A stretch of 64,000 nt of DNA from positions 192,001 to 256,000 of the forward strand of contig JBNRMN010000033.1 of NCBI GenBank assembly GCA_050309605.1, read 5' to 3'. Below, piece after piece: positions 33,745-41,969 of the stretch. Origin of the DNA: Anaerohalosphaeraceae bacterium (GTDB lineage: Bacteria > Planctomycetota > Phycisphaerae > Sedimentisphaerales > Anaerohalosphaeraceae). Position numbers and translations under genes: made by a program. Within the stretch, counting starts at the first letter, position 1. Each line of letters starts with the position of its first letter. The notes under the pieces were generated by a model. It saw only the letters and a program-made list of their open reading frames with translations, was not told the DNA's origin and did not search any database.

Positions 33745-34116
33745 TTATCCGAGGTTGCGACGCAGTGAATTTACGCGACCGAACCGCAGCCAGGTCGGCG
33801 ATTCATACGCCGTCCCACTTGTTATGAAGTGGTTGCGATCAGAAGTATATTGTGGATAAGTTGTGAATAAACTGAGGGTTGTCCACACGAAACGAAATGA
33901 AACGTCCGTTCCGGAAGAAACAAGACAGTTTCGAAATGCAAAAAACGCTTTCTTAAAGGCCAATAACCGACCTGTCTTGTTGTTACTCCTTTACCTGTAA
34001 TAAGTTATGGATATGTCGCAAAAAAGAGGTCAACCTATATCTACTGAGCGGGACTATTTAGGGATTATTTAAGTCTTATATTTTATTCATATGACATTGG
34101 GCTGGAATGTGGATTG
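33745..34116. other. Intergenic DnaA-box cluster with AT-rich segment (candidate oriC or DnaA titration locus)
   Basis: TGTGGATAA (33851, perfect), TGTGAATAA (33862), TTGTCCACA (33879), weaker boxes at 33745, 34006, 34083 and 34108; 450-bp gene-free region. Confidence 0.6.
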
Positions 34117-34138
34117 GTGGTTGAAAACCCCTGATACT

Positions 34139-35188
34139 CTACGAACGGAGTAGGATAGTCTTGAGTTGACGGCATTGTTTTTCTGGATTATCTAATATCG
34201 CCGAGGCCACAGCCACGGCTCGAATCCCCGTTTCCAGTACAGTGGGCAGGTTTTGAGCATTGATGCCGCCGATGGCCACGGGTCGGATAGAGGTGGATGC
34301 CAATTGCTGGACGGCCTGTCGGATGTAGTCCAGTCCTGCCGGCGCAAGGCCGGGTTTGGTCGGGCTGGCAAAGGCCGGGCCAACGCCCACGTAATCATAG
34401 CCTGCGGCGACGGCTTCGTTCAGTTCCTTGATCGCGTGGGTGCTGCCGCCGATGAGCATCGGCCTTTTCAGCAGCGTTCGGGCGGATTTTGGCAACATAT
34501 CGTCCTGTCCGAGATGGACACCGTCGGCCTGCGCCAAGGCCGCAATGTCGGGGCGATCGTTGATGATCCCCAGTGCTCCGTCGGTTCTGCATACCTCCAT
34601 AAACATCTCGGCCAGCGACAAAAAACGGCGGTCGGACAGGTCTTTTGCGCGAAGCTGGAGGGTGTCGGCGCCGCCGGCAATGCAGCGTCGGGCCAGTTGC
34701 CGTGCTGCGGTGTCAGTCGTTTTCGGATCGACGTTAATCAGCACATATAAGCTAATACGTTCGAGTTTATCCAGTTTATATACGGCCTCAAAGACCTTTT
34801 TTTCGAGGTCATACACCCCAAACCGAAGCCGCTCACAGACCGCCGCAACCTCGGCATCCAGCGTCCGGGTCATCTCGGCCAGGACGCGCAGGGCCTCGGT
34901 GGCGCGTTTGGCTGCGGCGGTAAAGCAATCGGCCAGGCTCGTCCGCGAAAGCTGTCCTTCGACGCTCAGTTCGCGTCCCACATCGCCGGCTACATCCCGC
35001 GCGGTCAGCAGGTTCTCCGCATCCAGCCGGGCAATGGCTCCGCACAATTGATGCCGCATTTGTTTGGCCCTGGCGCTGAGGGTTTTATCATCCAGCAGAA
35101 AACGGCAGTACTCCTCCATTCCCCGCAGCGCTTCCCGCGCCCGGTTAAAGTTGGCGTCAATAATTCGATAAAGACTTGTATCGCTCAT
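34139..35188 (-). CDS. thiE: Thiamine-phosphate synthase with N-terminal helical extension
   Basis: RIIDANFNRAREALR N-domain; QLRAK, INDRPD, DGVHLGQDD, GPAFASPTK, VAIGGI. Confidence 0.93.
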   Translation of the reverse strand: MSDTSLYRIIDANFNRAREALRGMEEYCRFLLDDKTLSARAKQMRHQLCGAIARLDAENLLTARDVAGDVGRELSVEGQLSRTSLADCFTAAAKRATEALRVLAEMTRTLDAEVAAVCERLRFGVYDLEKKVFEAVYKLDKLERISLYVLINVDPKTTDTAARQLARRCIAGGADTLQLRAKDLSDRRFLSLAEMFMEVCRTDGALGIINDRPDIAALAQADGVHLGQDDMLPKSARTLLKRPMLIGGSTHAIKELNEAVAAGYDYVGVGPAFASPTKPGLAPAGLDYIRQAVQQLASTSIRPVAIGGINAQNLPTVLETGIRAVAVASAILDNPEKQCRQLKTILLRS

Positions 35189-35309
35189 GGCATTCGCCTG
35201 AATAAACCGACATCAATTCACTGGACGCAACGCATTATACCCGCGCGGCGTGACATTGCCAAGCGCCGTAATGCCGTCAGAGCGGAGGTGAGAATGCGGC
35301 GTTACCGGT

Positions 35310-36509
35310 TTACTCCAGTGCGAGGATAAAGGGGTTTTCGAGGATTTCGACGACGCGGCGTAAAAAGCGGACGCCGTCGGCGCCGTCGATGATGCGATGG
35401 TCATAAGACAGCGATAATGGTACAATCAGCCGCGGCTGAAGTGTCTGGTCGATATAGACCGGTCGGCGGGTTGCGCGGGCAATGCCGAGGATCGCCGCCT
35501 GGGGCCAATAGATGATCGGTGCAAAGGCGCCGCCGCCCAGACCGCCGAGATTGCTGACGGTGAAATTACCGCCGACCATCTCTTCGGGTGCGACCTTGTG
35601 CTGTTTGGTGCGTTCGGCCAGCGAGGTCAATTCGACCGCGATCTGCAGAAGGCTTTTTTTGTCCACGTCGCGCAGCACCGGCACCAGCAGTCCGCGGTCG
35701 GTATCCACCGCAACGGACAAGTGGCAGTATTGCTTGTAAATGATTTCATTGGTCTGCGGATCGAACGAGGCGTTGAATTGCGCAAAGTCTTTCAAGGCCA
35801 GTGCTACGGCCTTGAGGGCAAGGGCGGTCAGCGTCAGTTTGCCGCCGGCGTCTTTGACCCGCTGGGCGCCGGCCTTGCGTAATTCTTCGAGCGTCGTGAT
35901 GTCGGCGTGGTCATATTGGGTCACCTGCGGGACCGTCGCCCAGGTATAACTGAGTGTGGCGGCGATTTTTTTCCGCGTTGTGGTAACGGCCTTGCGTTCA
36001 ATCGGCCCCCAGACGGAAAAATCGGGCAACGATTTGTCGGCCGGCGCCGCGGCGGGCGGCGGTGACAGCTCACGTTGCGAAGGTCGGTCGTCGGGCACTG
36101 CGCCTGCCGCTTTCGCCCCGTCAGGTTCCGAGGCTTCGGATTCCTGACGCACAGAGGCCGCCGCAGGCGCAGCTCCGACTTCCTTTGGCATAACAGCCGA
36201 ATTCTCCCCTTCGGACTGAGTTGTATCGGGCTGCCGGGGTCCGGGCCGGCCCGTGGGTGTTGTTTCTTCAATTTCCGTTTCCACCTTCATCAGAAGTTGG
36301 CCGACGTTGACGGTTTGTCCCGGTTCGATATGGAGTTCAATCACTTTGCCTTTGACAGGGGACGGCACGTCAAATGTTGCCTTTTCCGTTTCAAGCTGAA
36401 CCAGCGGTTCTTCCACATCAATGACATCGCCGACCTTGACGAAGATTTCGATTACGTCGCCGGATTCAACCGTTTCCGATATTTCAGGGAGCGTGATTTC
36501 TTTGATCAT
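35310..36509 (-). CDS. aceF: Dihydrolipoyl acyltransferase (PDH E2): single lipoyl domain, no recognisable PSBD
   Basis: LETEKATFDVPSP lipoyl site; FTVSNLGG; LSYDHRIIDGADG catalytic motif. Confidence 0.9.
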   Translation of the reverse strand: MIKEITLPEISETVESGDVIEIFVKVGDVIDVEEPLVQLETEKATFDVPSPVKGKVIELHIEPGQTVNVGQLLMKVETEIEETTPTGRPGPRQPDTTQSEGENSAVMPKEVGAAPAAASVRQESEASEPDGAKAAGAVPDDRPSQRELSPPPAAAPADKSLPDFSVWGPIERKAVTTTRKKIAATLSYTWATVPQVTQYDHADITTLEELRKAGAQRVKDAGGKLTLTALALKAVALALKDFAQFNASFDPQTNEIIYKQYCHLSVAVDTDRGLLVPVLRDVDKKSLLQIAVELTSLAERTKQHKVAPEEMVGGNFTVSNLGGLGGGAFAPIIYWPQAAILGIARATRRPVYIDQTLQPRLIVPLSLSYDHRIIDGADGVRFLRRVVEILENPFILALE

Positions 36510-36539
36510 TTGACATACCTCTTCTGTTTGTTTTTCCGC

Positions 36540-39062
36540 TTACACGGAAAGGGGGTTGGGTTTTTCGGGATCGATTTTCAGTTCCTGTATCGCGCGCTGG
36601 ACCAGGTCCAGTTGGATTTTACCTTCCTGGCTCAGTCCGACCAGGGCCGCCAGTGCAATGTATCGTGCGTCCACTTCGAAATAATCGCGCAGTTCGGCGC
36701 GTCCGTCGCTTCGACCGAACCCGTCGGCGCCCAGCGGCATCAGTCGTCCCGGCAGCCAGCGGGCAATCGAACAGGGCAGCGTCTTGAGGTAATCGGTGGC
36801 CGCGACAAACACGCCCTGCGTGTTCTCGAAGCAGCGTTCAATATAGCAGCGTCGCGTTTCGGACGGATGCAGCATATTCCATCGGGCTGCGGCTGCGGCG
36901 TCTTCATATAAGGCTTTGTAGCTGGTAACGCTCCAGACCTCCGCAGCCACTTCATAGCGCGACTCAAGCAGCTCTTTGGCCTTGACGGCCTCGTTGAGGA
37001 TGGCGCCGCTTCCGAGCAGGATCGCTTTGGGTGCATTGTTGTTCAGGCCGGCGGACTGATACCGATACATTCCCTTAAGAATTCCCTCTTCAACGCCGTC
37101 GGGCATCGGCGGCATCCGATAAAACTCATTGAGCATCGACACATAGTAAAACACGTTTTCCTGTTTCACATACATCCGGTGCAGACCGTCGCGTATAATG
37201 ACCGCCAGTTCATAGGCAAAGGCCGGATCGTAGGCTTTCAGGTTCGGGACGGCATAATAAAAATGATGGCTGTGGCCGTCCTGATGCTGCAAGCCCTCGC
37301 CGGCCAGGGTGGTTCGCCCGGAGATGCCGCCGATCAGAAAGCCGCGCGCCATGACATCGGCCGCGGCCCAGATCAAATCCATCATCCGATGCGCTCCAAA
37401 CAGTGAATAGAAGAAGTAAAACGGGATGATGTTCAGGTCGTGCGACGCATAGGCCGTGCCGGCGGCGATAAAGGAGGCCATCGAGCCGGCCTCGGTAATG
37501 CCTTCTTCAAGAATCGCTCCGTCTTTCTGTTCGTTGTAAAACAGCAGGGTGTCTTTGTCCACCGGTTCGTATCGCTGGCCGGACGGGCAGTAAATGCCGG
37601 CCTGTCGAAACAGCGCTTCCATGCCGAAGGTACGTGCCTCGTCGGGAACAATCGGAACGATGAGCTTGCCGATCTGCTTGTCGTTGAGCAGCTTGGCCAG
37701 CAGGCGAACGACGACCATGGTACTGGCTACTTCGCGGTCGCCGCTGCCTTTAAGAAACTCGTCGAACAACTCATCCGGCGGCATCTGCAGCGGTTTGACG
37801 ATGACCGTGCGGCGCGGCACGTATCCGCCGAGCTGTTTGCGTTGTTCCTGAAGATAGCGGATTTCCTTTGTGTCCGGGTTGGGTCGATAGAACGGCGCTT
37901 CCTGTACCTCCCCGTCCGGGATGGGGATGCCGAAGCGGCTTCGAAATTCGACCAGTTCTTCTTCGTTGAGTTTTTTCTGTTGATGGGTGATGTTGCGTCC
38001 CTCGGCCGCTTCGCCCAGTCCATAGCCTTTGATGGTCTGGGCGAGGATGACGGTCGGTTGTCCGGTATGCTCGATCGCCGCTTTGTAGGCGGCATAGACC
38101 TTCAGCGGATCATGGCCGCCCCGACTGAGCCGACGAAGTTGTTCATCGGACAGGTTGCTGACCATTTCCAGCAGTTTGGGGTCCGTGCCGAAAAAGTCTT
38201 TTCGGATAAAGTCACCGTCGGAGACGGCGTATTTCTGAAATTGTCCGTCGGGGACTTGCTCGGCTCGTTTGGCCAGTCGTCCTTCGGTGTCTTTGGCAAA
38301 CAGGGCGTCCCAGTCCGATCCCCATATCACTTTGATGACATTCCAGCCTGCGCCGTGAAAAATCGATTCCAGTTCCTGTATAATTTTTCCGTTTCCGCGT
38401 ACCGGTCCGTCCAGCCGCTGCAGGTTGCAGTTGACGACGAAAATCAGATTGTCCAGTTTTTCGCGTCCGGCGATGGACAGCGCGCCGAGACTTTCCGGTT
38501 CGTCCATCTCGCCGTCGCCCAGAAACGCCCAGACCTTGCGATCGCTCGGTGCGGCCAATTGCCGGTTTTCCAGATAGCGGTTGAACCGGGCCTGATAGAT
38601 TGCCATCAGAGGCGACAGCCCCATCGACACGGTGGGATACTGCCAGAACTCCGGCATAAGCCGCGGGTGCGGATAGGACGGCAGCCCGCCTTCGGACGCC
38701 AGCTCCGAGCGAAAGTTTTCCATATCAAATCCGCTGAGACGGCTTTCCAAAAACGCGCGGGCGTAAATTCCCGGAGCGGCGTGTCCCTGAAAATAGAGGA
38801 TATCGCCTTTTTGCTCGGGCGTGTCGGCTCGGAAGAAATGGTTAAACCCCACCTCCATCAAGGTCGCTGCGGATGCGTATGTCGAGATATGTCCGCCCAG
38901 TCCCGGTTTGTGGCGATTGGCGCGGATGACCATCGCCATCGCGTTCCAGCGGACAAGGCTTTTGATCCGCCGTTCGATTTCGCGCCGTCCCGGATAGGGC
39001 GGCTGCCGGTCGGCGGGTATCGTATTTACATAGGGTGTTGTTCCGTTCATCTGCGTTCTCAT
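36540..39062 (-). CDS. aceE: Pyruvate dehydrogenase E1, homodimeric AceE type, N-terminally shortened
   Basis: YVNTIP, RWNAMAMV, GGHISTY, GDGEMDEPES...NCN ThDP motif, EEGITEAGS, GEGLQHQDG. Confidence 0.95.
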   Translation of the reverse strand: MRTQMNGTTPYVNTIPADRQPPYPGRREIERRIKSLVRWNAMAMVIRANRHKPGLGGHISTYASAATLMEVGFNHFFRADTPEQKGDILYFQGHAAPGIYARAFLESRLSGFDMENFRSELASEGGLPSYPHPRLMPEFWQYPTVSMGLSPLMAIYQARFNRYLENRQLAAPSDRKVWAFLGDGEMDEPESLGALSIAGREKLDNLIFVVNCNLQRLDGPVRGNGKIIQELESIFHGAGWNVIKVIWGSDWDALFAKDTEGRLAKRAEQVPDGQFQKYAVSDGDFIRKDFFGTDPKLLEMVSNLSDEQLRRLSRGGHDPLKVYAAYKAAIEHTGQPTVILAQTIKGYGLGEAAEGRNITHQQKKLNEEELVEFRSRFGIPIPDGEVQEAPFYRPNPDTKEIRYLQEQRKQLGGYVPRRTVIVKPLQMPPDELFDEFLKGSGDREVASTMVVVRLLAKLLNDKQIGKLIVPIVPDEARTFGMEALFRQAGIYCPSGQRYEPVDKDTLLFYNEQKDGAILEEGITEAGSMASFIAAGTAYASHDLNIIPFYFFYSLFGAHRMMDLIWAAADVMARGFLIGGISGRTTLAGEGLQHQDGHSHHFYYAVPNLKAYDPAFAYELAVIIRDGLHRMYVKQENVFYYVSMLNEFYRMPPMPDGVEEGILKGMYRYQSAGLNNNAPKAILLGSGAILNEAVKAKELLESRYEVAAEVWSVTSYKALYEDAAAAARWNMLHPSETRRCYIERCFENTQGVFVAATDYLKTLPCSIARWLPGRLMPLGADGFGRSDGRAELRDYFEVDARYIALAALVGLSQEGKIQLDLVQRAIQELKIDPEKPNPLSV

Positions 39063-39073
39063 CAGTCGTTAGC

Positions 39074-39295
39074 TCAGGTTTTGCGTGAAGCGCAATAATA
39101 CATTCCCGACAGGCCGCACTGTTCCCACAGCGGGCACTCCGGACAATTGCAGCCGCGTTTTTCGATGGGCTGTTTGGCGGGGCCGCGGGCACAATACAGC
39201 CCTTCTTTGGAGCCTTTGGGGTAGCTCGGACAGGTCGAGCAGTTGCCCTGCATACAGACGGCAAAATGTTCACGGGTATCTTCAACTTTGGCCAT
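39074..39295 (-). CDS. Small Cys-rich protein (DUF2769-like)
   Basis: CSTCPSY...LYCARG...CNCPECP...YYC pattern. Confidence 0.75.
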   Translation of the reverse strand: MAKVEDTREHFAVCMQGNCSTCPSYPKGSKEGLYCARGPAKQPIEKRGCNCPECPLWEQCGLSGMYYCASRKT

Positions 39296-39349
39296 AACAG
39301 CTTATTTCCCGAGCGGTCCTTTTCGGCCGCAACAAGTCAATTCATTGAT

Positions 39350-40165
39350 TTATTTTTTCAATACACATATCGCTTCGGGCTGATTGAGGCAAAGAGCGAT
39401 GCTTTCCGATACCATAAATTCATAGGTATTGCCGGTCGGTCCAATGAAGCTTGTCACCAGATCCCGTCCGAGGACAATGCTTGTGCATTGCCCGCAACTG
39501 CAAAGCAGCACGCCTCCGGATGAGATACCCGGCGCCTTGACGATGCTGTCGGTTATCATTTGCCCGATGTGTTCCAGTTCGGTTTGATTGCCCTGAGGAT
39601 ACCGCCGAAACAGGAAATTATACAGATCGGGCGACAGGGCGAGGGTATACGGTCCGGGAAAGCCCGCCTTGTCCATCGCGGTTATTGCGCGGATCATATC
39701 CTCGGCTGCGGTTCCGACGTTGTCCCAGGAACTGAGTTTGATCGAATGACCGCCGGAGGCGGTAGTCAGGCCTTCCAGTCCGAGCGATTTGGCGCCGTTG
39801 AATAGCAGGGCATCTTCCTGTCGGGCGCAATCAATTGCCGCGGCGGCGGCTCGCCCCAAATCAATGGGCATACCACATTCTTCAAATGCGGCTACGTCGC
39901 GAATGGGCAGAGAAAACTTACTGTAAATCATCACCAGCGGCATCACGCATGGGGCGGTCATCTTGGCGCTGCCGACGGTTTTTTCGTCGAGGGGTTTGTC
40001 TTGGGAAGGATAATCCCGCATGCCCAGTCCAAACGGCCCCTGTGTCGGCAACATCCGCCGCGCGGTCATTTGACTCTTGGCCGCTGCGACGACGGTTTCG
40101 TCAATCTTTGCCCATAATTTTTCGCCGAAGGGCGCATCATTGCGATGTAAAAATCGTTCTGTCAT
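39350..40165 (-). CDS. Family 1 encapsulin shell protein (Linocin M18-like)
   Basis: FLHRNDAPFGEKLWAKID...ARRMLPTQGPFGLG, EDALLFNG, GPYTLALSP; 271 aa; cargo gene directly upstream. Confidence 0.92.
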   Translation of the reverse strand: MTERFLHRNDAPFGEKLWAKIDETVVAAAKSQMTARRMLPTQGPFGLGMRDYPSQDKPLDEKTVGSAKMTAPCVMPLVMIYSKFSLPIRDVAAFEECGMPIDLGRAAAAAIDCARQEDALLFNGAKSLGLEGLTTASGGHSIKLSSWDNVGTAAEDMIRAITAMDKAGFPGPYTLALSPDLYNFLFRRYPQGNQTELEHIGQMITDSIVKAPGISSGGVLLCSCGQCTSIVLGRDLVTSFIGPTGNTYEFMVSESIALCLNQPEAICVLKK

Positions 40166-40216
40166 AGATGCTCTCCATCATCTTTCATTTATCCTTTTGT
40201 TGATGCTGTTGCCGAG

Positions 40217-40585
40217 TTACGGCTTCAAGCTGCCCGGCGTTGCGATGGACGGTTTCGGCGGCGGTTCATTTGCATCGGAAGGCGAATCGATCTCGGCGGC
40301 CATCTCATCGACTTCCTCGGCGCCTTTGTCCAGATAATGCGCTTCATCCTTCAGCAATATCGCCAGCAAACGCTGGAATTCGCCGACATGAACACGTTCT
40401 TCATTGGCAATATCGAGAAGCACTTTTTTGGCCAACTCATTGTCGGTGGCCTCGGCGTGTGCTTCGTAAAGGGAGACCGCCTCTTCTTCGGCGGCCAGGT
40501 CGAGCCGCAGGGCACGAGCCAGTTCCGCATCGCTCATCTTGCGTCCCGGTACGACTCCGCTGAATGGATTGGTGAATTCCGGCAT
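40217..40585 (-). CDS. Encapsulin cargo: ferritin-like protein with C-terminal targeting peptide
   Basis: AEEEAVSLYE and DIANEERVHVGEF di-iron motifs; Pro-rich linker ending ATPGSLKP. Confidence 0.88.
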   Translation of the reverse strand: MPEFTNPFSGVVPGRKMSDAELARALRLDLAAEEEAVSLYEAHAEATDNELAKKVLLDIANEERVHVGEFQRLLAILLKDEAHYLDKGAEEVDEMAAEIDSPSDANEPPPKPSIATPGSLKP

Positions 40586-40611
40586 TTCAACATGTCTCCG
40601 TCAAGCTCGAT

Positions 40612-41013
40612 TTAATCGGTTACCTCGATATCCACTTCATATTCCCAGCATCCGTGCAGATTGCATCGTTCAAAGGCGCGCAGCTTGCCGTGTCCGTGAT
40701 CCAGCGCCACACAGACCTTCATTGCCGGGCACGTAGTTTTGGCCGTGAAATCCATTCGCGCCAGATACGTCTCACCCGCATACAGCTCGATAAACTGAAT
40801 GAAGTGTCCCGGCTCATTCGGGTGTTTGAGCAGTTTGCCCACTTCGACGGTCACCTCAAAACATTCGCCTTTTTTGACGCGCTTGGGAGCGGTGATTACC
40901 GGCAGATGCTTTTTTTCAAGATCACCGGCCTGCTCCGGATCGGGCACGATATTGACCCCGCAGAAAATGTCTTCCGCGCATTCCTCATTGACCTGTTTGG
41001 CTTTCGTAAACAT
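40612..41013 (-). CDS. Superoxide reductase (1Fe neelaredoxin / class II SORL)
   Basis: EKKH, HPNEPGHFI, CNLHG iron ligands; no desulforedoxin domain. Confidence 0.9.
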   Translation of the reverse strand: MFTKAKQVNEECAEDIFCGVNIVPDPEQAGDLEKKHLPVITAPKRVKKGECFEVTVEVGKLLKHPNEPGHFIQFIELYAGETYLARMDFTAKTTCPAMKVCVALDHGHGKLRAFERCNLHGCWEYEVDIEVTD

Positions 41014-41108
41014 GTGTCATTCCTTTCCAATTTATTGTGATTCCTTAACGATAAACCGTGCCGCCGCTTCTGCGGTAACTTCTTATACTCAAGCCGTTTG
41101 GATTCCGA

Positions 41109-41125
41109 AATAGGGAAATTCCTTA
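41109..41125. promoter_or_regulatory. Imperfect palindromic operator AATAGGGAAATTCCTTA, copy 1
   Basis: Identical 17-mer at 41970; lies 21 nt upstream of a TATAAG -10-like hexamer on the minus strand. Confidence 0.75.
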
Positions 41126-41209
41126 TTTTGTCCTTCACGATCCCTTAAACACAACGACTGTGTGTCGCCCGTCCTGTGATTGTGCGGTCGCAGGACGTTG
41201 GCCGACACG

Positions 41210-41674
41210 TTAGATTTCTTCCACATCGCTGTGGGGCGCAACGGAAAAATCGATCACGGTTTGGATATGAATGCACAACCGCCGCTCCAGTTGCGGCAGG
41301 GGGATTTGCCCTTCGGTTTGCGGCGCATAGCCGTTCAGGACGCCGACATTTTTGTAATCCGTCAGCGTTCCGACCAACTGGTATCCAACGTCCGTTTCTT
41401 TTTCCCACACGACCACTGAAATGCGCCTGTTTTGACGTAAATTTTTGACGGTACCGGGGCAGAACCACTCTGAGATGCTGATGTTCTCCGGTCCGATTTT
41501 TTCCATTTCGCCGGCGGCGGCCAGATGCGGCAAGCCATCGACGTCGGCCGTTGCAATAAAAACATGCCCGACCTTTTTGGCAAGGGCGACGGCTTTCTCG
41601 AGCACGTCGTTTTTTGTGTCGGCTCGTTTGGCCGGGGGGTCGTGGCAGGGATGGGTCGCGGCGGATGTGTTCAT
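41210..41674 (-). CDS. Pyridoxamine 5'-phosphate oxidase-like FMN-binding split-barrel protein
   Basis: FIATADVDGLPH, TVKNLRQNRRISV, GYQLVG. Confidence 0.8.
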   Translation of the reverse strand: MNTSAATHPCHDPPAKRADTKNDVLEKAVALAKKVGHVFIATADVDGLPHLAAAGEMEKIGPENISISEWFCPGTVKNLRQNRRISVVVWEKETDVGYQLVGTLTDYKNVGVLNGYAPQTEGQIPLPQLERRLCIHIQTVIDFSVAPHSDVEEI

Positions 41675-41856
41675 AATGCCTCCGGTTTACACAGGTTTTG
41701 GGCGTTGGCGGCCACACGGCCGCAGTTTTGACAGACAAATTTTCCGTCCCGTACCAGCGATTTGTAATCGTCCGGATAGGAAACCGGATAGCCCAGGTTG
41801 TTCAGATAGCATAGATGTTTGTCGTGGCCCGGATGGGGCATCTTGGGTTTATCCAT
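41671..41856 (-). CDS. Small His/Cys metal-binding protein (61 aa)
   Basis: HDKHLC...CQNCGR...NLCKP; GGGGAG RBS; start/stop overlap with the next gene. Confidence 0.75.
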   Translation of the reverse strand: MDKPKMPHPGHDKHLCYLNNLGYPVSYPDDYKSLVRDGKFVCQNCGRVAANAQNLCKPEAL

Positions 41857-41969
41857 CGTTCTGTCTCCCTGTCTGGATTAACATATCTCTTGAGCCGCTA
41901 CGTCTGATATTGAATCCGGTTCATTCAACGGGATAAAATGCAGATTAGCCGCTCGGTGGTGTAAAAGTG

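Follow-up and report, generated by a model that had tools for sequence, protein, structure and literature searches.

A window of 64,000 nt from an Anaerohalosphaeraceae bacterium (GenBank assembly GCA_050309605.1, contig JBNRMN010000033.1, positions 192,001 to 256,000 of the forward strand) carries two adjacent genes, aceE and aceF, for pyruvate dehydrogenase E1 and its acetyltransferase partner E2, and both halves of their canonical docking interface are missing: AceE has no N-terminal segment for binding E2, and AceF has no peripheral subunit-binding domain (PSBD). Textbook accounts of bacterial pyruvate dehydrogenase (PDH) include both the PSBD and the E1 N-terminus. The PSBD is bound by residues 1-55/58 of E1, in competition with E3 (PMC10849603, PMC6270654). 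We lean towards the view that aceE-aceF encodes an untethered but functional pyruvate dehydrogenase. Positions are those of the window unless another contig is named.

An earlier note on this DNA had described AceE as shortened, with an in-frame TAA (39071-39069) barring any extension, and the open reading frame, phmmer and the NCBIfam profile all agreed with this description. AceE starts with MRTQMNGTTPYVNTIP, and the DUF2769 gene upstream ends at 39074, 11 nt before the aceE ATG. In the phmmer alignment, AceE residues 7-837 matched residues 55-883 of E. coli E1 (1l8a) with an E value of 2e-291. The aceE equivalog TIGR00759 was covered from profile position 49 to 884 of 885, with 1287 bits against a cut-off of 859.9; because the match starts at position 49, about 48 N-terminal residues are missing from AceE. 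The exception model for AKGDH_not_PDH, TIGR03186, was not reached (1143 bits, cut-off 1408). In the alignment to 1l8a, AceE retained the GDGEMDEPES and NCNLQRLDGP motifs, as well as residues corresponding to H407, E571 and H640 of E. coli, and extended to the C-terminal end of E. coli E1 without an extra tail. When the whole genome was translated in six frames and searched with a hidden Markov model (HMM) of the missing N-terminal segment, there was no match (best E value, 0.56).

The same note had found no PSBD in AceF, and the E3_binding profile (PF02817) was indeed undetected there by Pfam, even at E ≤ 0.1, with Biotin_lipoyl placed at residues 3-75 and 2-oxoacid_dh at residues 170-394. Genome-wide, PF02817 matched only once, in another E2 that is encoded on contig C14. 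AceF scored 360.7 bits with the E2p equivalog TIGR01348, below its cut-off of 552.1. The lipoyl lysine context ETEKATFD and the DHRIIDG motif are both present, so that the catalytic motifs reported as intact in the note (GDG...NCN, lipoyl Lys, DHRIIDG) were all recovered by alignment and by reading of the sequence. Between the two domains, linker residues 78-160 are 38/83 Ala, Pro or Glu and include only 7 hydrophobic residues. In an AlphaFold2 model, the alignment for which included PSBD-bearing homologues, residues 81-158 had a predicted local distance difference test score below 50 (23-40) and no secondary structure.

Relics of the PSBD are visible in the linkers of the clade. In the alignment, 'ASVRQ' and 'AGAV.DDR' stand in register with 'PSVRQLARELGIDI' (PSVRQLAREL) and 'GTGP.GRIS' of PSBD-bearing relatives, and the hydrophobic core positions of the former domain are substituted. 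Profile-profile comparison (hhalign) of linker and PSBD paired the same 42 columns, with a probability of 56% and an E value of 1e-4. Because the relics remain in register, the PSBD was probably eroded by substitution rather than excised, and the linker appears to be a PSBD that decayed in place.

We compared the window with its relatives L067 and L068 by the Nei-Gojobori ratio of nonsynonymous to synonymous substitution rates (dN/dS). The ratios, for L067 and L068 respectively, were 0.068 and 0.091 for AceE, 0.10 and 0.17 for the AceF lipoyl domain, 0.056 and 0.12 for the AceF catalytic domain, and 0.84 and 0.64 for the linker. From these ratios, the enzyme parts of AceE and AceF are maintained by purifying selection, and the linker can change almost freely.

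The losses are not peculiar to one assembly: near-identical contigs of other runs span both sites, and about ten relatives (63-97% identity) have both losses. Thirteen listed public runs hold at least half of the sampled words of a 5.7-kb stretch, and two of them may be the source of the DNA of the window. Contigs of run X3 differed from the window by 16 letters over 34100-38441 and by 11 over 38412-41900, with no indels reported, and a contig of run X7 had 0 differences over 39022-39899. In an RNA library, a contig of run X17 skips 342 bases within aceE (38057-38400, with a side of 31 letters and a depth of 4), which is probably due to another organism or to an assembly chimera.

We then asked how the two losses are distributed among relatives, using the best 120 homologue clusters for each protein. 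Among these AceF clusters, PF02817 was absent from 13 and present in 107. The ten closest, P0001-P0010 (63-93% identity), all lacked it, as did P0106, P0110 and P0114; in a homologue search with P0106, P0106 and P0114 formed an isolated PSBD-less pair amid PSBD-bearing relatives. The best 120 AceE clusters comprised 15 short forms (fewer than 30 residues before Y-x-N-T-I), 103 long forms and 2 fragments; N-termini of long forms bore the family label PF28598. Short forms make up all but one of the eight nearest full-length AceE clusters: P0121 and P0123-P0128 (80-97% identity) have 835-837 aa, and the eighth, P0122, is long; the other short clusters are P0148, P0206, P0208, P0210, P0213, P0217, P0234 and P0237. 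Two further candidates for a truncated AceE from a phylum search, open frames of 841 aa in G587 and 877 aa in G454, were rejected, as both run into contig ends.

At the level of loci, the Pfam scan covered 28 of 41 that carry aceF, the 13 dropped being duplicates, fragments or paralogues of at most 31% identity. A PSBD was present in 26 of the 28, the exceptions being L067 and L068. In-frame stops lie 12, 16 and 11 codons before the Y-x-N-T-I motif in aceE of the window, L067 and L068, respectively. Nineteen other loci with a visible AceE N-terminus reduce to 15 distinct loci once near-identical copies are removed; all 15 are PSBD-bearing and have AceE start codons 57-67 codons upstream of the motif, and the long N-termini conserve the pattern EW..SL....G..RV..LL. 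A PSBD-less AceF thus stands beside a truncated AceE in 3/3 directly read loci (the window, L067 and L068) and a PSBD-bearing AceF beside a long AceE in 15/15, in agreement with the paired loss described in the note. When AceE and AceF clusters were paired by eye through equal 'longest contig' values, six more short/PSBD-less pairs, 16 long/PSBD-bearing pairs and no mixed pairs were obtained by this indirect matching. Clusters P0148, P0206, P0208, P0210, P0213, P0217, P0234, P0237, P0106/P0114 and P0110 had no matching value and stand outside the pairing.

The order of the two losses can be approached from the AceE tree. P0122 (888 aa, 85% identity to AceE of the window) sits inside the truncated clade, yet it has an N-terminal extension, and this extension scored lowest of the 103 long forms with a purpose-built N-terminal HMM (47 bits against a median of 87), a comparison that favours the other long forms because P0122 alone was excluded from training. 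P0122, for which no E2 partner was found, may represent an intermediate stage. A single clade of the eight short forms was marginally rejected (approximately unbiased test, p = 0.038; the group was named after the tree had been seen), and the short state needs at least five changes on well-supported branches of a FastTree tree of 120 proteins. Loss of the E1 N-terminus looks repeated and secondary.

A second AceE lineage bears on the same question. A survey of 401 genomes from the order located AceE in 46, and a truncated AceE with ZnR, a small His/Cys-rich protein, encoded upstream and no aceF within about 8 kb was found at L105 (G064), L106 (G115), L107 (G161) and L109 (G102). These are four of the five readable loci of the lineage; the fifth is L110. 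AceE of G060 is also truncated, and its contig ends 268 nt downstream of aceE. In a tree of locus-derived AceEs, the second lineage including L110 formed one well-supported clade apart from that of the window. With AceF of the window as query, genomes of this lineage gave no match or matches of 27-30% identity only (G102 lies outside the sample), and they hold other E2 catalytic domains. Genes for rubrerythrin and a PocR/AraC regulator neighbour aceE in L106 and L108. Together, these data suggest that the cognate PSBD was lost first, by decay or because its gene left the locus, and that loss of the E1 N-terminus came later, a pattern rather than a test, resting on two independent contrasts.

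The genome of the window is 99.7% complete, and the search for lpdA that the note had suggested located this gene elsewhere in it, on contig C82 (TIGR01350, 497 bits), among unrelated neighbours and unlinked to aceEF. The genome also encodes LipA (381 bits), a LplA/LipB-type enzyme (LplA-B_cat, 149 bits) and pyruvate:ferredoxin oxidoreductase (PFOR). The one PF03099 match of the genome is BirA. A second 2-oxoacid dehydrogenase is encoded at G000:C14:9245-13206 (L005), with a fused E1 alpha-beta of 747 aa and an E2 bearing two lipoyl domains and a PSBD; its genes adjoin those for a DeoR regulator and a 1666-aa PAS/histidine-kinase hybrid. At G000:C8:31053-31754 (L006:9054-9755), a 233-aa lone E2 catalytic domain without lipoyl domain or PSBD is encoded beside an isocitrate/isopropylmalate dehydrogenase gene, and comparable short frames, of 224-276 aa, are present in G064, G115, G161 and G060.

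In the system that we favour, neither E1 nor the separately encoded LpdA would dock by the canonical route. Because both canonical docking parts are absent, pyruvate oxidation would depend on free collision with the lipoyl arm: E1 would reductively acetylate the lipoyl domain on encounter, the catalytic domain would form acetyl-CoA, and the lipoyl group would be re-oxidised by LpdA or another thiol oxidoreductase. E1 accepts an isolated lipoyl domain as a substrate (PMC6270654). As to origin, docking may have become dispensable in the lineage, whereupon the PSBD would have eroded in place and the now useless E1 N-terminus would have been deleted, probably more than once. The note had seen here selection for a non-assembling complex and not decay. 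The second half of this claim stands, as the enzymes are not decaying (dN/dS 0.06-0.17), and the first half is overstated as positive selection, given the near-neutral linker. Relaxed selection on docking is the simpler reading, because the PSBD decayed in place and the N-terminal loss looks repeated and secondary.

Several points weigh against an untethered, working enzyme of this origin. The lack of a canonical interface does not in itself prove that E1, E2 and E3 fail to assemble. Certain linker residues are found repeatedly in the clade (VSxDR, K[KE]V.T), and a short docking motif might be made up of them. In work of Park et al. from 2004, N-terminal deletions of E. coli E1 reportedly abolished the overall activity of the complex and spared reductive acetylation, so an untethered system may be very slow. 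The 6 + 16 extra AceE/AceF pairings rest on indirect matching, the short/PSBD-less pairs all belong to one clade and amount to about one evolutionary event, and the independent contrasts number only two, too few for a test. At L110 (G199, a genome that is 57% complete), AceE has a long N-terminus despite the lack of an adjacent aceF. For expression of aceEF there is no more than a weak hint, from contigs of two RNA libraries that match aceF, the 5' end of aceE and DUF2769 with patchy coverage.

Of the other explanations, one is that the E2 core still binds E1, E3 or both, by a new interface or by way of a small adaptor like MRPS36. Eukaryotic E2o provides a precedent, with an Ala/Pro loop where the PSBD would otherwise be and MRPS36 recruiting E3 (PMC9974300). 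Small conserved proteins are encoded upstream of aceE (ZnR at 11 loci, DUF2769 at 2), and the few recurring linker positions would also suit such a complex. However, the linker evolves almost neutrally (dN/dS 0.64-0.84) and is predicted to be disordered. ZnR accompanies long and short AceE alike and is found in 264 of the 401 genomes, compared with 46 for AceE; being so widespread and associated with both forms, it is not a replacement specific to truncated AceE. DUF2769, single-copy in the genome of the window, is gone from L067, where the truncated pair is kept, and DUF2769 also lies upstream of a full-length AceE/AceF pair in G027 (L100). DUF2769, for which the note had suggested a structure prediction with E2, is thus dispensable, and we regard a re-scaffolded complex as unlikely. 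Barely less unlikely is the possibility that AceE is becoming independent of E2, as a stand-alone thiamine diphosphate-dependent pyruvate decarboxylase or oxidase with another electron acceptor, and that AceF is a partly used leftover. The truncated AceEs without a nearby aceF in G064, G115, G161 and G102, the lack of a close AceF in those genomes and the stronger conservation of AceE all agree with it. On the other hand, purifying selection on the lipoyl and catalytic domains of AceF matches that on AceE in strength, AceF is kept in all three directly read loci of the clade, and the orphan AceEs could use lipoyl domains of other E2s in their genomes.

The position of the pair beside encapsulin genes raises the further idea that the PDH components are encapsulated, or scaffolded by the nanocompartment or DUF2769, and the earlier note had asked whether the losses are linked to encapsulin. 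This linkage did not hold among the relatives. Apart from 39067-41089, where 30 nt (L067:484-513) replace the cassette of superoxide reductase (SOR), ferritin-like cargo (Flp), encapsulin and DUF2769, L067 follows the window collinearly, with about 92% DNA identity. Of the 30 nt, 24 reproduce exactly the final 11 nt of the encapsulin gene together with the 13 nt behind it, which we read as a deletion scar left when L067 lost the cassette; this scar suggests that L067 underwent two deletions. The truncated AceE and the PSBD-less AceF are nevertheless retained there, as they are in L068, where ZnR is directly upstream of aceE and no encapsulin lies upstream. Conversely, in G125 (L098), where adjacency might be thought to speak for a tie as it does in the window, the Flp and encapsulin genes lie immediately upstream of those for a full-length AceE and an AceF that has its PSBD. 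The shell also has its own EncB-type cargo, and AceE ends where E. coli E1 ends, leaving no room for a targeting peptide. Encapsulin thus appears to be a bystander, and a causal tie to it is scarcely credible. Mis-assembly, a wrong start call or incipient pseudogenes would explain the missing segments with equally little credibility: nothing but the segments themselves speaks for an artefact or decay, and against it stand the same sequence in independent runs, in-frame stops upstream of aceE in 3/3 loci, the low dN/dS (0.06-0.17) of the catalytic parts and intact catalytic residues.

Compared with the E. coli-type PDH complex, the pair shares the TIGR00759 match, the alignment over E1 residues 55-883, the lipoyl and acetyltransferase domains of AceF and an lpdA gene in the genome, but the E1 N-terminal segment and the PSBD are absent, and with them canonical E1-E2 and E3-E2 docking. 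E. coli-type E2 has three lipoyl domains and AceF has one, and lpdA here is unlinked. In eukaryotic E2o, an unstructured Ala/Pro-rich loop likewise replaces the PSBD between the lipoyl and catalytic domains, but MRPS36/KGD4 serves as an adaptor for E3 and E1o binds by its own N-terminus (PMC9974300). The present pair differs in being a bacterial E2p whose E1 has also lost its N-terminus, with no adaptor identified. A full-text literature search turned up no description of a PSBD-less bacterial E2p together with a truncated E1p, although papers beyond the search may hold one. In the glycine cleavage system, a free lipoyl carrier, H, visits the loosely associated P, T and L proteins, L being the same dihydrolipoyl dehydrogenase. 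The likeness is a functional analogy only, with no architectural homology, and the lipoyl domain here is covalently attached to the E2 core.

In mycobacteria, the Lpd-DlaT-AhpD-AhpC relay lets the lipoyl group of PDH E2 feed an AhpD-type protein for peroxide detoxification. Some likeness to this relay is seen in SOR and Flp-encapsulin beside aceEF in the window and in the CMD/AhpD-family, thioredoxin-like and DJ-1 genes beside it in G125. The neighbours of aceEF in the window also include a PNPOx-like protein and ZnR, and those in relatives include rubrerythrin. In G125 (L098, G125:C108, 13344-18672), the order CMD(AhpD-like)-ZnR-Thioredox_DsbH(DUF255, thioredoxin-like)-DJ-1/PfpI-Flp-encapsulin stands directly upstream of a canonical aceEF, and aceEF beside antioxidant genes recurs in the family. 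No AhpD/AhpC gene was seen in the island of the window, however, and the link is a lead only. A bolder possibility, which we consider decidedly improbable, is that un-tethering was adaptive for such anaerobic planctomycetes, with aceEF belonging to an oxidative-stress island and the dihydrolipoyl arm being freed from docked E3 so that pyruvate electrons pass to antioxidant acceptors instead of NAD+. If this were true, the pair would use pyruvate to drive a thiol reductant system and at the same time stand in for oxygen-sensitive PFOR, and the orphan truncated AceEs of sister genera would have gone one step further along this path.

Under the favoured reading, the lineage would be a natural experiment in which decay in place of one docking partner is followed by deletion of the other. 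The same truncation in a lineage without an E2 gene at the locus supports the idea that binding the PSBD is the sole purpose of the E1 N-terminus. AceE and AceF are also material for asking how much tethered substrate channelling contributes and whether PDH can run by free collision.

The features of the locus are collected below.

Features of the aceEF locus, in order of transcription (window coordinates unless a locus is named)
Feature	Position	Strand	Remarks
ZnR, 61-aa His/Cys-rich protein	41671-41856	minus	First gene in transcription order; upstream of aceE in 11 loci
ZnR at other loci	L068:666-851; L098:17856-18041; L099:13544-13729; L029:4464-4649; L105-L110
PNPOx-like flavin-binding-fold protein	41210-41674	minus	Directly upstream of aceE in L067
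SOR-Flp-encapsulin-DUF2769 cassette	39067-41089		30 nt in its place in the 92%-identical contig L067
Desulfoferrodoxin-type SOR domain protein	40612-41013	minus	Pfam and NCBIfam
EncB-family ferritin-like encapsulin cargo (Flp)	40217-40585	minus	NF058679, 112.6 bits (cut-off 90); C-terminal ...TPGSLKP
Family 1 encapsulin shell protein	39350-40165	minus	PF04454; NF041155, 231.7 bits
DUF2769 Cys-rich protein, 73 aa	39074-39295	minus	Pfam; a neighbour, not an obligate partner
In-frame TAA	39071-39069	minus	Three codons 5' of the aceE ATG; blocks any N-terminal extension
aceE, homodimeric-type pyruvate dehydrogenase E1, 840 aa	36540-39062	minus	TIGR00759; without the N-terminal PSBD-binding segment of about 48 residues
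aceF, E2 acetyltransferase, 399 aa	35310-36509	minus	One lipoyl domain, linker and catalytic domain; no PSBD
AceF lipoyl domain, residues 1-77	36279-36509	minus	PF00364 at residues 3-75, 66 bits
AceF linker, residues 78-160	36030-36278	minus	Putative decayed PSBD remnant; predicted disordered; almost neutral evolution
AceF catalytic (acetyltransferase) domain	35313-36029	minus	PF00198, 262 bits; DHRIIDG
ThiD2-ThiE thiamine-phosphate synthase	34139-35188	minus	Pfam; downstream of aceF, flanks the island

The C-terminal motif of Flp is presumably its encapsulin targeting peptide. Genome G013, from the same genus, lacks the entire block ZnR-PNPOx-SOR-Flp-Enc-DUF2769-aceE-aceF (35310-41856) at the corresponding locus (L114, G013:C16). 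Its flanks are contiguous there (TrkA-TrkH-ThiE-lipoprotein-DapB), with ThiE abutting the gene for a 136-aa lipoprotein and the gene order otherwise conserved; the block is therefore an accessory island. Given this island with its oxidative-stress genes, PFOR and the canonical second complex, the pair could plausibly serve as a low-flux, oxygen-tolerant back-up of PFOR, co-located with genes against oxidative stress. Promoter-like sites (8 found, against 5.3 ± 2.2 in shuffles) and terminator-like sites (11, against 10.6 ± 3.8) were within chance.

ZnR upstream of aceE has a mean column identity of 75% across its 11 loci, with His8, His14, Cys16, Cys42, Cys45 and Cys56 invariant, and no Pfam or NCBIfam family was found for it. 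In the order, the ZnR family is often multicopy and often heads stress/redox gene clusters. At L029, between an archease gene and aceE, RtcB (L029:5719-7151) is present as two adjacent open reading frames of 157 and 302 aa (Pfam positions 2-102 and 128-426), which could reflect a frameshift, a recoded codon or a real split.

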